From a virus (lineage: Duplodnaviria > Heunggongvirae > Uroviricota > Caudoviricetes): 46,253 nucleotides of DNA. Under the pieces are notes generated by a model. The model was not told where the DNA came from, searched no databases, and was given only the letters and a program-made list of their open reading frames with translations. The translations under genes and the position numbers were made by a program. Shown in pieces: positions 1 through 5,912 of the stretch. How positions within the stretch are numbered: the first letter of the stretch is position 1; the number at the start of each line of letters is the position of its first letter. The stretch lies in IMG/VR virus record IMGVR_UViG_2721755496_000003, positions 1-46,253 of that record; one strand, given 5' to 3'.

Positions 1-609
1 TCAGCTTGCAGGCCATCCGATAACATAACTGCGGATCGCCTTCAGCTCTGTCAGCGCTTCAACCTCTGCTTTCATCTGAAGCTGACGTGTATTAATCTCC
101 ACACCTTTCGCAAACATCGCCTGCTCTGTCGCATCTGCCAGCGCAATTATCTCCGCCGCCGTTACCGGCACCACATTATTATCCCCGTCCGTCCAGGCAA
201 AACATTCCGGAAGACGGTTATTCTCTGCCATCAGGCGTGTCGTGCTTATCCTGGACAACGTCTTCTTGCCGTAATCCCAGTTCCTTCCGTTGAATTCCAT
301 CACGTATTCCATATTCTCCTGCACATCACGCCAGATATTAATCTCTTCCCGTTTCGCCGCCTTTGCCGCTTCAAGTACTGCAGCCGTGGCAACAAAGGCG
401 GTCACACTTCCGTATGTTCCTGCTGTCAGACCAGACCACAAGGCTTTTCCGTGTTCAGTATTATCCGTTTCCGTTGCGGTATACGGCAGCCATACCGGCT
501 CTCCTTTTTCATTGACCGCATCTTCAAACTGCACCTCACAGTTTATCCCGCCGTATTCGTTGTAGGCTGCATTTCGTACTGCAATAATCTCTTTTCCCTT
601 ATCCACCAT
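1..609 (-). CDS. Tail-fibre accessory protein (Tfa-like assembly/chaperone candidate) immediately downstream of stf; stop codon is the first 3 nt of the window
   Basis: 202-aa ORF in the lambda tfa position, start 8 nt after the stf stop; C-terminal helical region ending ...GWPAS loosely resembles the Tfa C-terminus; no confident family match. Confidence 0.4.
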   Translation of the reverse strand: MVDKGKEIIAVRNAAYNEYGGINCEVQFEDAVNEKGEPVWLPYTATETDNTEHGKALWSGLTAGTYGSVTAFVATAAVLEAAKAAKREEINIWRDVQENMEYVMEFNGRNWDYGKKTLSRISTTRLMAENNRLPECFAWTDGDNNVVPVTAAEIIALADATEQAMFAKGVEINTRQLQMKAEVEALTELKAIRSYVIGWPAS

Positions 610-616
610 GACCTCC

Positions 617-1810
617 TCATGATATGCGCTGAAATAATCCTGCCTGTCTTGTACCTGCAGCAGATGTCCATATTACCGGACCACATGCACGCCACGTGCC
701 CGGTAAACGGGTATCCCCCACACGAGAGGAAGCAATCAGAGGAGTTCCATCCGAAAGGCAACATGCAGACAGTGATGAGCCGGCAATGGCTGAGCCCGGT
801 GCCATATCCCCTGAATAACTCGTCGCATAATACGCCGCAAGGACAAAAGAACCGACACCAAACAGTCCGCTGTCAGGACTTCCTGACGGTCCCTGTGGTC
901 CTGCCGGGCCTGTGGCTCCCGTATCCCCTTTTGGCCCCTGTGGTCCTGCCGGGCCTGCAGCTCCCGTATCTCCCTTCGGTCCCTGCGGACCTTCCGGACC
1001 TGTAGCTCCCGTGTCTCCCTTTGGCCCCTGAGGTCCTGCCGGACCTGCGGCTCCCGTATCTCCTTTTGGCCCCTGAGGCCCTGCCTGACCTGCGGCTCCC
1101 GTATCCCCTTTCGGTCCCTGTGGACCTGCCGGACCTGTGGCTCCCGTATCACCTTTTTGACCCTGAGGCCCTGCCGGGCCTGCAGCTCCCGTATCCCCTT
1201 TCGGCCCCTGTGGACCTGCCGGGCCTGTATCCCCCTTGTCGCCCTTCGGTCCCTGTGGTCCGCCCGGATCGCCCTGCTCACCTTTCGGACCGGTATCCCC
1301 CTTATCGCCCTTGTCACCTTTATCCCCTTTCGGCCCCGGTGGCCCTGCCGGGCCTGTATCGCCCTTGTCCCCCTTCTGTCCCTGTGGACCAGTTGCTCCG
1401 GTGTCGCCTTTCGGTCCCTGTGGCCCCACGGCAGTTTCGGCTTTCTCAGCAGCTTCTCGCGCCCTGCGCACAGTCTCATCCGCCGCCGCTTCCAGCTTCT
1501 TCAGTGCATCAGGGTAATACGCTGCATCCGTTTCACGGAGCAGAAAGGCATTCAGGGTGCCTGGTTCGTCGTCGGCCATGACATCAATCTCGCCGGCGCA
1601 TGCCGGCTGACGACCTTCCACGCACAAGGTCACACGATAACGCCCCGGCTCAACCTGCATGCTGTAACTGCCAGTTTCGCCTGGCTGGTGCTCTGCCACC
1701 GTGGTGACTATCACCGTCTCGCTGGTTCTCACGGCTTTCAGCTCTATGGTACAGTCCGGTACCGGTTTTCCTGTACCATCCTTCAGCACACCTGAAATCT
1801 GTACTGACAT
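617..1810 (-). CDS. stf: Side tail fibre protein with collagen-like Gly-X-Y repeats
   Basis: N-terminus [17 protein letters not shown]...CTIELKA matches the lambda Stf N-terminal pattern; long ([11 protein letters not shown])n repeat region; position after lom. Confidence 0.65.
850..1440. repeat. Tandem imperfect nucleotide repeats encoding the collagen-like Gly-X-Y tract of the tail fibre
   Basis: Repeated ggtcctgccgggcctg(t/c)(g/a)gctcccgtatcccctt units visible in the sequence. Confidence 0.6.
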
Positions 1811-2606: not shown

Positions 2607-5600
2607 TTACGCCTTCGACATCCAGATAACTGTCACTGCATTACCTGAAACCGACACCGTCACGGGTGTCCCCGCATTAAGCCTGAACACTTTGATCCAG
2701 ATTGTGCTGTAGACAGGTCTGTAACTGCCGCCACCATGCCCCGGACTTCCGCCGCTCCAGACACTGTCTGTCTGCATCCTTGAAAGGATCGCAGAGGAAA
2801 CCGGTGTCTGCTCGTTACCGTTAAAGTACAGGTGTTCAGCACTACCCAGCATCACCAGATTCATGGTAAATACCTGAGCCGGTATATACACACTGTTACC
2901 GTTAAGCACATACGTCTTCGCAATATCTCCGGTTATCTGTGCTGCAGATAAATTTCCCTTAATCACACAGTCCTGGTTTATCGTCACATTGTTGAGCGTG
3001 CCTGAACTGGCGGTGATACTGCCGCTGATATCCGCATTTTTAGCGGTCAGCTTTCCGTCCGGAGTCAGGGAAAATGCAGGGGGATTACCGCCGCTGGTAA
3101 TGGTGGGAGCCGTCAGGCGTTTCAGGAACACGTCGTTCATGAATATCTGATCGCCCTGTGCCACAAACATCGGCGTTGAGTTACCGTTTGCCTGGTCAAT
3201 AAACGCGATACGGTTGGCGGCGACAAGAAACTCGCTCAGTTTTCCTTCTTCCGTCTCCTCCATGCTGAGGCCAATCCCGGCAACATAATGTTTACCGTCT
3301 TCGGTCTGCTCAATTTTGACGCCCCACATGGCATTCCATTTATCGTTAGCGTCTTTCCACTGTTTCGAGAACTCATCAAGCCTGCTGGCGTTATCCTCTG
3401 TCAGTTCGAAATTCTCCAGCAGTTCCCTGCCAAGATGCGTTTTATTAATCAGCCCCTTGTAAAAATTCAGATAACCTTCCGCATCATCGCTGGGCTGACC
3501 GACGGCCTCCACAAATGCCGACTTACCCACGGTGTTAACACTGCGAACGTAAAAATAATAATCATGGCCTGGCCTGATATTGATACTGGCGGCTATCCAG
3601 TACAGCGCCGTGCCAAGATAGCGGGCTGTGGTTTCAACCTGCCTGATTTCCGCAATCCGCTTTTCCGAGAACCAGAACTCAAACTGTACCGTCGGATCAT
3701 AAACGGCAAGATGCGGCGTGGCGGTTATCTGAAAATAGCCCGGCGTCAGCTCAATCCGCGACGGCGCTGCCGGTGCGGCAATCCGGAACGATACCGATGC
3801 CGGATCGCCCTGTTGCCCCCAGGCATTTACCGCCCGGACTGTCAGCCTGTAGTTTCCCAGCGCCAGTTGCGTGAAGCGGTATGTGGTTTCCGTCGTCCGG
3901 GCCGTGCTGACCAGCCGCTCACTGCCGTCATCCGCTGCCACGGTCAGGCGAAGCAGGAAGCTCACCCCCTTCACCACCTTCGGCGTGTCCCATCGCGCCA
4001 GCACCTGATATTCCCCGCTGTCTGCGGTGACTTCGGCGGTCAGGTGCTGCACCGCTGGCGGCGTGACACCATTCACCGTGCCGCTCTGGTCGCCGTCAAA
4101 GTGCGCCCCGTTATCCACGATGGCCTCTTTTTCCGGTACATGCTGCACGGCGGTGATGGCATACGTGCCGTCGTCGTTCTCACGGATACTCACGCAGCGG
4201 AACAGGCGCTGGCGCAGCGTCGGCAGCTTCAGCCCCCACACGCTGTATTCAGCAACACCGTCAGGAACACGGCTCACTTTCACCTTCACGCCGTCGGTGA
4301 CGGACTGAACCTCCACGCTGACCGGATTGCCACTTCCGTCAACCAGGCTTATCAGCGTGGTACCGGAGGATGGCAGAGTGATTTCACGGTCGAGCGTCAG
4401 CGTCCGGGTCTGGCTGTTTACCGCCAGCACGCGCCCGCCGATGCTGATACCGGCATAGTCATCATCGCAGATTTCAATGACATCGCCCGGTACATGGCGA
4501 AGCCCTTCAGCACCCACGCTGAAATCCACGGTCTGCGTCTCCAGCAGTTCCGTTTTAATCAGCCACAGCCCGGCGCGGTGTGCCTGCCCCCGGCTGGTAC
4601 AGCCAAAGGCATCCATCTTCGTGACATTACGACCGTAACGGGCAATGGCCTGCGTATCTTCAACAAGCTCTGTCGCCGTCTCCCAGCCGTTGTTCGGGTC
4701 AATCCAGTTCACCTCAACGGCATTATGGCGGTCCTTCAGGGCGCTGAAGCTGTAGCGGAACGGCGCGCCATCATCCGGCATCACCACATTACTGCGGTTA
4801 TAGGTCCACACCTTATCTGATGGTCGGTCCTGCACGAACGTCAGCGTCTGCCCGTTCCATACCGGCATACAGCGCATCGCCGAGCAGAAATCACTGAGCA
4901 CATCCCACGCCTTGCGCTGTGTGCTCAGGTACGCATTACAGGTGATGCGCGGCTCCGTGCCGCCAAAGCCGTCCGGCACTGACTGGTCGCAGTACTGGCC
5001 GATGACATACAACGCCCATTTGTCCACATCCGCCGCACCAAGACGTTTTCCCATGCCGTAGCGCGGATGGGTCAGCATATCCCACAGACACCAGGCCGGG
5101 TTGTTGCTGTATGCCGGTTTAAACGTTCCGTCCCAGATACCGCTGTATTGCCGCGTCTGCGGGTTATAATTCGACGGCACCTGCAGAATACGCCCGCGCA
5201 GATGATAATTACGGCTCACCTGCTGGCTGCCGAACTGCTCCGAATCCACCTGCACGCCGACCAGTGCCGTGTTCGGGTAGCTCTGTTTCACATCGATGAT
5301 TTCGGTGTATGACGACCAGAGCGTTTTGTTCTGCAGCTGCTCTGTGGTGCTGTCCGGCGTCATTCTGCGCATCCGGATATTAAACGGGCGCGGCGGCAGG
5401 TTATCCACCACCACCGAGGCCAGATACTGCGAGGTGGTTTTGCCCTTAATGGTGATGTCTTTTTCCGTCACCCAGCCACCGTTACGCTGTATCTGAACCA
5501 GCAGGCGGACTTCCGACGGATTCCGGTCCCCCTTTGAGGTGGTTTCCACCAGTGCCTGCACACCGAAGGTAAAGCGCAGACGGTCGATGTTTGCCGACGT

Positions 5601-5912
5601 GATGGTCCGGGTAATCGGCGTGTCGTACTTCACTTCCGTACCCAGCACCGTCTCGGAGCCGGAGGATTCAAATCCCTCCGGCGGTGTCTGCTCCTGCTCA
5701 CCTGCCCGGAAAACCACCGTGACACCGGAGATATTGGTATTCTCCTCACTGTCCAGCACCGGTGTACTGTTCAGCAGCACGCTTTTTAATCCATCCACCG
5801 GACCTTCAACCGGCCCTTCGCTGATGGCATCAATCACACTCAGTAACTGTGTGGATTTCAGGTTGTCCTTCGCTTCGCGTGGGGTATGCCCCTTACTGCT
5901 GCCTTTACCCAT
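2607..5912 (-). CDS. J: Tail tip/host specificity protein J (central tail fibre), with a C-terminal receptor-binding region that differs from lambda J
   Basis: 1101 aa; N-terminal about 950 aa near-identical to lambda J as recalled ([34 protein letters not shown]...); last about 150 aa diverge. Confidence 0.9.

Follow-up and report, generated by a model that had tools for sequence, protein, structure and literature searches.

Side tail fibres with a collagen-like shaft have already been described from lambdoid prophages of Escherichia coli and were biochemically characterised in 2012 (PMC3368898). In that work Ghosh et al. defined the collagen-like proteins EPclA-D of enterohaemorrhagic E. 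coli (EHEC) prophages, and EPclA was shown by circular dichroism, ultracentrifugation and electron microscopy (EM) to be trimeric, with a thermostable collagen triple helix, a trimerising C-terminal domain and a measured shaft length that fits 2.9 Å per residue. In the Gly-X-Y triplets of these proteins the X position is mostly Pro (48%) or Asp/Glu (36%), and the Y position Lys/Arg (31%), Ala (21%), Thr (20%) or Gln (15%); differences in collagen length between copies were noted as well. EPclC was defined as a PfN domain followed by collagen, usually without the PCoil coiled coil and with a C-terminal region unrelated to PfC, and EC55989_1078 was listed as EPclC* (PMC3368898). The attachment of a side tail fibre (Stf) to the virion is known from the tail tip of Ur-lambda, where Stf residues 1-94 fold into a six-stranded beta sheet plus a helix; the gpV/gpM junction is ringed by a collar of 12 such copies, which carries four trimeric side fibres (PMC12617516). 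The present analysis concerns a side tail fibre gene with a collagen-like shaft at positions 617-1810, minus strand, of a 46,253-nt stretch of virus DNA (IMG/VR record IMGVR_UViG_2721755496_000003, positions 1 to 46,253), hereafter the window. What is added to the earlier work is that the length variation is quantised in units of 15 residues (45 nt) and limited to the distal block of the collagen, that a near-isogenic pair of genomes captures a recent change, and that the tract is a junction between modules.

It is highly probable that the whole locus is explained by a side tail fibre with a collagen shaft, a change of shaft length by 45-nt units, and overlapping open reading frames (ORFs) that are artefacts of the repeat. 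The gene has the domain layout of such a fibre and an array of 45-nt repeats, and among E. coli genomes it is polymorphic in length in steps of that unit; nothing was found that contradicts its identification as a tail fibre. We infer a trimeric, triple-helical fibre, four of which would be carried by each virion, with a tip that would have a binding role and a shaft whose length would be altered by mispairing of its repeats.

Layout and affinities of the fibre

The gene is a single intact ORF of 397 aa in the ORF list of the window. Residues 1-127 match PF08400 ('prophage tail fibre N-terminal'; E 2.5e-40, 138 bits against a cut-off of 26.6), the middle of the protein matches PF01391 (collagen; 95.3 bits, cut-off 27.2), and the protein as a whole matches PHROG tail-fibre families. 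Apart from animal collagens, the best match among solved structures is the 'tail fiber protein' chain of PDB 9E7M/9MGH, the Ur-lambda Stf collar domain, to which the N-terminus is identical at 55 of 91 positions (60%; E 1e-28). The gene order on the minus strand is that of a lambda tail operon, with J (2607-5912) and Lom (1875-2474; PF06316) upstream of the fibre and a DUF4376 gene (1-609) downstream, and positions 1734-22852 are 96-97% identical in DNA to lambda, 434 and related phages. An identical fibre protein is encoded on 23 public contigs, on which genes with the Pfam domains of yciE, yciF, yciG and trpA adjoin the fibre gene's copies; the element that carries the gene is an E. coli prophage of lambda siphovirus type and lies beside yciEFG-trpA. 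The original prediction, made from the letters of the window alone, had placed a collagen-like tract in a side tail fibre, and both parts are borne out by the two Pfam families, the 61 Gly-X-Y triplets, the homology to the Stf collar and the tail-operon gene order.

These 61 triplets form uninterrupted runs of 19 and 42; in 2000 residue shuffles of the fibre protein the longest run was 7 (mean 3.3). The whole Gly-X-Y tract occupies 875-1426 (552 nt), and the regular array within it only about 380 nt. The span 617-1810, first given as the tract, is thus the entire gene, and the tandem repeat itself is real while its proposed size of about 600 bp was an overestimate. Tandem Repeats Finder reports a period of 45 nt over 887-1268 (8.5 copies, 81% matches, score 433), an additional super-period of 135 nt, and a 9-nt sub-repeat at 1294-1327, within block 1, that encodes (GDK)n. 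The 45-nt unit corresponds to 15 aa or five triplets, with a consensus ending in A or T; imperfect tandem repeats do encode Gly-X-Y triplets as had been proposed. Compared pairwise, the units are 76-93% identical in nucleotides (mean 85%) and 80-100% in amino acids (mean 90%), 112 of the 142 differences between them fall at codon position 3, and the longest exact direct repeats between units are 17-26 nt. Pro makes up 49% and Asp/Glu 30% of the X positions, and Lys 28%, Thr 25%, Ala 20% and Gln 18% of the Y positions; the G+C content of the tract is 67%. At 2.88 Å per residue, a value taken from PMC3368898, residues 129-312 give a computed shaft of about 53 nm, to which each 45-nt unit adds 4.3 nm.

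A fibre of this layout would be assembled from three chains. Following the Ur-lambda structure, the N-terminal ~94 residues would attach to the tail within a collar of 12 copies where tube and tip meet, giving four fibres per virion, and the neck that follows is presumed to be helical by analogy with lambda Stf. Residues 129-312 would wind into a collagen triple helix, a thin, semi-flexible shaft with one break of register, of which the tandem array makes up the distal two thirds. The 85-aa beta tip would cap the fibre, probably hold the three chains in register and contact the host surface, helped by the DUF4376 chaperone. As for Ur-lambda Stf, the expected role would be that of an accessory fibre that speeds adsorption.

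A collagen tract of this kind is also found in bacterial surface adhesins of the Scl1/Scl2 or Lcl type, and the protein might be such an adhesin carried by the prophage as cargo and not a part of the virion. The NCBIfam models Lcl, SclA and SclB do align to the collagen region, with E-values of 5e-49 to 5e-35; their scores, however, lie well below the curated cut-offs (167 against 500, 125 against 400 and 121 against 325 bits), and the matches are confined to the collagen and the Ala/Glu-rich neck just before it, whereas the N-terminus is a Stf collar domain and the gene has lom and a fibre-chaperone gene as its neighbours in a lambda tail operon. The sub-cut-off scores, the collar and the operon position rule out the adhesin, to which we give next to no credence, and leave a tail fibre. 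BclA of Bacillus anthracis and Scl1/Scl2 of Streptococcus pyogenes resemble the fibre in that a collagen triple helix is capped by a C-terminal globular trimer, and the BclA structure 1wck matches the tract in a search of the PDB; they differ in being cell or spore surface proteins with other terminal domains and anchors. In BclA the number of collagen repeats varies between strains and sets the length of the filament, a principle like the one proposed for this fibre.

By its described layout the protein fits among the EHEC prophage collagen-like proteins and is closest to EPclC. As in EPclC, PfN is followed directly by collagen without a long PCoil, and the tip has no Pfam match, the presence of PfC in the library being unverified. 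The X and Y preferences and the GPQ-GPK-GD(T) pattern of triplets are the same, the published interruption motif is present as GDPGGPQG at residues 180-187 in all 11 alleles (that of the window and the orthologous genes extracted from ten complete E. coli genomes), and the gene likewise lies in the tail module of a lambdoid prophage. The listed EPclC examples differ in having 479-520 aa and two collagen domains, against 397 aa and one span with a one-residue interruption here. The 3' half of the gene is 85.7% identical to fibre genes of O104:H4 prophages, whose strains are of the 55989 lineage; this would tie the tip to the named EPclC members indirectly only.

More generally, EPclA, EPclB and the fibres of Sp5 and phi24B are, like the protein described here, trimeric phage tail fibres that have a collagen shaft and end in a small globular domain, the trimeric state being presumed here, and in EPclA and EPclB the collagen length varies between copies in multiples of three residues. 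EPclA and EPclB differ in carrying a PCoil of 109-116 aa, whereas the collagen of this fibre starts at residue 129 without one, and EPclB has a Pf2 repeat (PF03406), for which this fibre gave no match. The collagen-like fibres of Sp5, whose ORF67 was placed at the tail end by immuno-EM, and of phi24B are more distant functional relatives; a literature search for the lateral fibres of phage lambda_2B8 yielded the phi24B preprint only. With the fibres of short-tailed Stx phages the gene shares only about 115 nt of collagen repeat in a megablast search of phage records. As relatives of the tip, such fibres (e.g. that of P13374) were rejected, since they end in a Peptidase_S74 domain and have no similarity to the tip.

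With Ur-lambda Stf the gene shares the homologous collar domain, a lambda-like upstream tail module and first 77 nt, and the position after J and lom; it differs in the DUF4376-type chaperone downstream and in its shaft and tip, which here are collagen and an unrelated domain of 85 aa. In their place lambda Stf (774 aa) has an Ala/Ser-rich coiled coil and Pf2 repeats, and its T4 gp37-like tip binds OmpC. The DNA homology to lambda and 434 ends 77 nt into the fibre gene (1734-1810), and this end marks the left junction of a module swap that brought in the collagen shaft; the prophage has a collagen shaft and a small tip that have taken the place of those of Stf.

The stop codon of the fibre (TGA, 617-619) is followed 7 nt on by the ATG of the DUF4376 gene (607-609), and the spacer GGAGGTC includes a Shine-Dalgarno-like GGAGG. 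The downstream product matches PF14301 (E 2.8e-16) and phrog_1141 of the tail category (E 1.6e-79). Its Pfam matches are of the DUF4376 type and do not include the lambda Tfa family (PF02413). Tfa-type chaperones, among them TfaMu and the fibre chaperones of Alteromonas phages, have DUF4376 as their conserved C-terminal part (PMC7882524, PMC10579305), and the protein is a probable tail-fibre assembly chaperone or cap.

The tip gave no Pfam family at E<=1 when the C-terminal 98 aa were searched, and no match of these residues to PF06820 (PfC, the C-terminal domain of EPclA and EPclB), a family whose presence in the Pfam copy used is unverified. When 1.84 billion representatives were searched exhaustively with the 85-aa tip (HMMER), 9 matches were returned, several of them low-complexity segments of giant proteins; the match that informs is with the C-terminal end of fibres of 652 aa and PfN-collagen-Pf2-collagen layout (46% identity over 97 aa). 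A word-indexed protein search with only the tip returned six proteins (P0001-P0006), all fragments and five of them labelled partial, from which repeats could not be counted. The non-collagen tails of the retrieved fibre homologues are of several types and range from 74 to 148 aa. In alignment A2 these tails have a framework in common, with invariant Gly21, Gly72, Trp74, Leu93, Phe94 and Arg96 and variable segments between them, and tips that differ in sequence and length share the ending ...GTW...LF(Q/I/M/L)R(I/V/A)(S/R/K/Y), at 620-640 in the window. This C-terminal framework may be where the DUF4376 chaperone makes contact, or it may mark a boundary for recombination with the gene downstream. 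With 22 more diverse relatives in the alignment, AlphaFold2 modelled the monomer as a small all-beta domain (pLDDT 67.7, pTM 0.60). This model has no significant counterpart among solved structures and matches predicted tail-fibre proteins (TM 0.5-0.63, E down to 4.5e-5) from phages of Pseudomonas, Aeromonas, Roseobacter, Sinorhizobium and others. On this model the domain is read as a fibre tip with a conserved scaffold and a variable surface, which, by analogy with PfC of EPclA, probably brings the three chains together.

Length variation and module exchange at the collagen tract

The repeat number among related prophages, proposed as a check of the tract, does vary, and it does so in one part of the gene. 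The N-terminus is of 128 aa and the GDPGGPQG break is present in 11/11 alleles, the C-terminus is of 85 aa in 10/11 (the remaining allele being frameshifted near its 3' end), and block 1 has 19 triplets in 10/11 and 18 in one. Block 2, by contrast with these constant parts, comprises 27, 32, 37, 42, 47 or 52 triplets, that is, steps of one 45-nt unit. By their record coordinates, the genes in 16 complete-genome matches fall into six length classes between 1059 and 1284 nt, with 1194 nt the commonest. Among cluster representatives from draft data that have the same tip and GDPGGPQG, the block after the break numbers 7, 12, 17, 32 or 42 triplets, all of them 2 modulo 5. The computed shaft ranges from about 40 to 62 nm across the six size classes of the observed alleles.

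The most informative comparison is that of strains 14EC001 and 2017.17.03CC (alleles L001 and L003), which are separated by a clean 90-nt indel with no mismatch in the remaining 552 nt of the tract and a single one in 2258 nt of flanks; 14EC001 and ZH48 (L010) differ by a 45-nt indel and two substitutions in the tract. Since the near-isogenic pair has the indel and almost no substitutions, the gain or loss of units is recent relative to point substitution. Most probably whole units are gained and lost when 45-nt units pair out of alignment, in replication slippage or in unequal recombination, and every such change would stay in frame, retain the Gly-X-Y register and alter the shaft by about 4.3 nm. 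The tract had been predicted to be prone to recombination and slippage and to create length variants: the variants are there, as the six size classes and the 90-nt indel pair attest, with slippage and unequal recombination as candidate mechanisms.

Two of the orthologues carry lesions. In strain MLI104K2 (L004; NZ_CP116925.1, 1001-2193) a 1-nt deletion frameshifts the tip (378 aa), and J is frameshifted as well; in O104:H4 C227-11 (L011; 1565-2623) the copy is annotated as a pseudogene and its C-terminus is missing. Some fibre orthologues thus seem to be decaying.

Several observations count against the account given so far. The first concerns the assemblies, since some of the length differences between public assemblies could be collapses or expansions of the repeat. 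If all of them were, the tract would be stable in nature; this is quite improbable. In its favour, the tip search gave almost only partial proteins cut inside the repeat, several on contigs of about 1 kb or less, and the short variants of 7-17 triplets come from draft data. The six size classes, however, occur in assemblies deposited as complete, all of them in frame, in exact 45-nt multiples and in otherwise distinct sequences; the units, whose identity is only 76-93% and which share no exact repeat longer than 26 nt, are resolvable by ordinary reads; and differences in Col-domain length between EPclA/B copies are known from finished O157 genomes (PMC3368898). The long PCoil trimerisation module of EPclA is also missing here, which leaves the registration of the chains to the tip and the short neck. 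Finally, the first AlphaFold2 model of the tip (98 aa, 6 close relatives) reached a pLDDT of only 38.6, and the later one is of moderate confidence and monomeric, so that the fold and role of the tip are tentative. A collagen-shafted side tail fibre with a shaft that varies by whole units remains our strongly favoured explanation.

The tract also separates parts of different origin. Compared with the other alleles the window is a mosaic, with identities of 85-98% in the N-terminus, 78-98% in the collagen and 88-97% in the tip in varying combinations. The same N-terminus and block 1 are found with five or more unrelated or diverged tips, one of which ends in a Peptidase_S74 chaperone, and the tip of the window also occurs in a fibre that has a lambda-type N-terminus, a long coiled coil and just 22 triplets. 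The tract is the junction where different N-terminal modules and receptor-binding tips are combined. A more far-reaching proposal would be that the number of 45-nt units changes faster than point substitution, that selection fits the reach of the fibre to the depth of O-antigen or capsule, and that the tract acts like a host-range contingency locus and a preferred crossover for tip swaps. One genome pair, with two units against 1 base in about 2.8 kb, speaks for the rate difference; taken jointly, we consider these claims rather unlikely, if worth keeping in mind.

In practice, the tip search returned almost only partial proteins that start inside the collagen repeat, which suggests that the tract routinely breaks short-read assemblies and would account for many 'partial' fibre proteins. 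The repeat also seeds spurious ORF calls in other frames, and it seems that at least one 'unknown function' family in PHROG represents a frame of this sort. Beyond correct annotation the importance is small.

Reading frames that overlap the repeat

Four ORFs overlap the tract and are present at exactly the coordinates first listed for them, 736-1479 on the minus strand, in the +1 frame of the fibre gene, and 1021-1581, 1157-1795 and 1236-1517 on the plus strand. It had been proposed that they are artefacts of the repeat, and this agrees with the codon-position pattern, the conservation of each frame and the stop counts, which vary between alleles. The tract has 67% G+C and codons poor in stops, and the other frames are therefore open and give rise to spurious ORFs. 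In particular, no stop interrupts the +1 frame within the tract in 9/11 alleles because GGN Gly codons, codons for Pro, Asp or Ala at X, and codons for Lys, Thr, Gln or Ala at Y permit no stop in that frame; the two alleles with a stop are exactly those with Leu-Lys, in which CTG AAA yields TGA. Among alleles of equal length, 112 of the 160 variable sites in the tract are at codon position 3 of the fibre frame. Amino acid identity between the window and allele L008 is 85% in the fibre frame and 49-54% in four of the other frames. Two of the antisense frames are conserved at about 49%; the third reaches 84% because its wobble position is shared with the fibre frame, and its 5 stops in the collagen tract of the window confine its ORF to 1236-1517. 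Stop counts in the antisense frames range from 0 to 8 among alleles.

That one of these ORFs, above all 736-1479 on the minus strand, is a genuine overlapping gene is an idea for which two things can be said: its product matches phrog_19387 ('unknown function') at E 1.1e-56, the antisense ORFs having weaker PHROG matches, and the +1 frame lacks stops in most alleles. Yet its openness is forced by composition, with a TGA gained as predicted in the two alleles in which Leu precedes Lys; the 112 of 160 variable sites at codon position 3 of the fibre frame correspond to position 2 of the +1 frame, where any substitution changes the amino acid; and the amino acid conservation of this frame is 50-56%, against 85% for the fibre frame. 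The match itself is most simply explained by phrog_19387 being a collection of this same +1 frame, miscalled in other phage records, and the PHROG families matched by the out-of-frame ORFs are probably built from miscalled frames of collagen-like fibres. A real gene in the +1 or antisense frames is ruled out by the codon-position pattern and the per-frame conservation, and its probability is in our view negligible; on the sequence evidence, the overlapping ORFs are artefacts of a stop-poor, G+C-rich repeat whose other frames are evidently non-coding.

Feature coordinates and other genes of the prophage

Table 1. Position of the fibre gene, its parts and adjoining features in the window.
Feature	Position	Strand	Basis
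Side tail fibre gene	617..1810	-	Intact ORF; PF08400, PF01391, PHROG tail-fibre families
N-terminal domain, aa 1-128: Stf-type collar and short Ala/Glu-rich neck	1427..1810	-	PF08400, Ur-lambda Stf
Collagen block 1, 19 Gly-X-Y triplets, Asp/Lys-rich	1256..1426	-	aa 129-185
GDPGGPQG, one-residue break of the Gly-X-Y register, aa 180-187	1250..1273	-	Sequence
Collagen block 2, 42 Gly-X-Y triplets, length-variable part	875..1252	-	aa 187-312
Seven full 45-nt (15-aa) tandem units	911..1225	-	Repeat analysis
Partial eighth 45-nt unit	866..910	-	Repeat analysis
C-terminal tip domain, 85 aa	620..874	-	Non-collagen tail of the fibre
Spacer GGAGGTC, 7 bases, from fibre stop to next ATG	610..616	-	Direct reading
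DUF4376 protein, 202 aa, probable tail-fibre assembly chaperone or cap	1..609	-	PF14301, phrog_1141
Artefactual ORF, +1 frame of the fibre gene, 247 aa, Arg-rich	736..1479	-	ORF list
Artefactual antisense ORFs 1021-1581, 1157-1795, 1236-1517	1021..1795	+	ORF list
Further antisense ORF	451..1005	+	ORF list

Some other genes of the prophage deserve mention. The central fibre J (2607-5912, minus strand) has 1101 aa; that of lambda has 1132 aa and what looks like a different distal C-terminal sequence, and the receptor of the J of the window may differ from that of lambda. A 341-aa LpxR-family protein (PF09982, E 1e-37) is encoded at 28520-29545 on the plus strand, opposite to the late genes and between the gene of antiterminator Q (31407-32081, minus strand) and that of a 651-aa esterase. 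LpxR is a lipid A deacylase, and the position between Q and the esterase gene is the one at which Stx phages carry stx; the gene looks like prophage cargo that could modify the lipid A of the host. The 651-aa protein (25512-27467, minus strand) has DUF1737, a sialate O-acetylesterase domain (SASA) and DUF6645, which is the layout of the NanS-p-type esterases that characterise Stx prophages and their lambdoid relatives. In its early region the prophage shares about 88% identity with EHEC prophages inserted at ompW. On the plus strand, 42394-44832 encodes what resembles a fusion protein (812 aa), in which an exonuclease VIII domain is combined with an Rv2179c-like 3'-5' exoribonuclease domain; the window ends with the gene of a lambda-type integrase (45123-46253).

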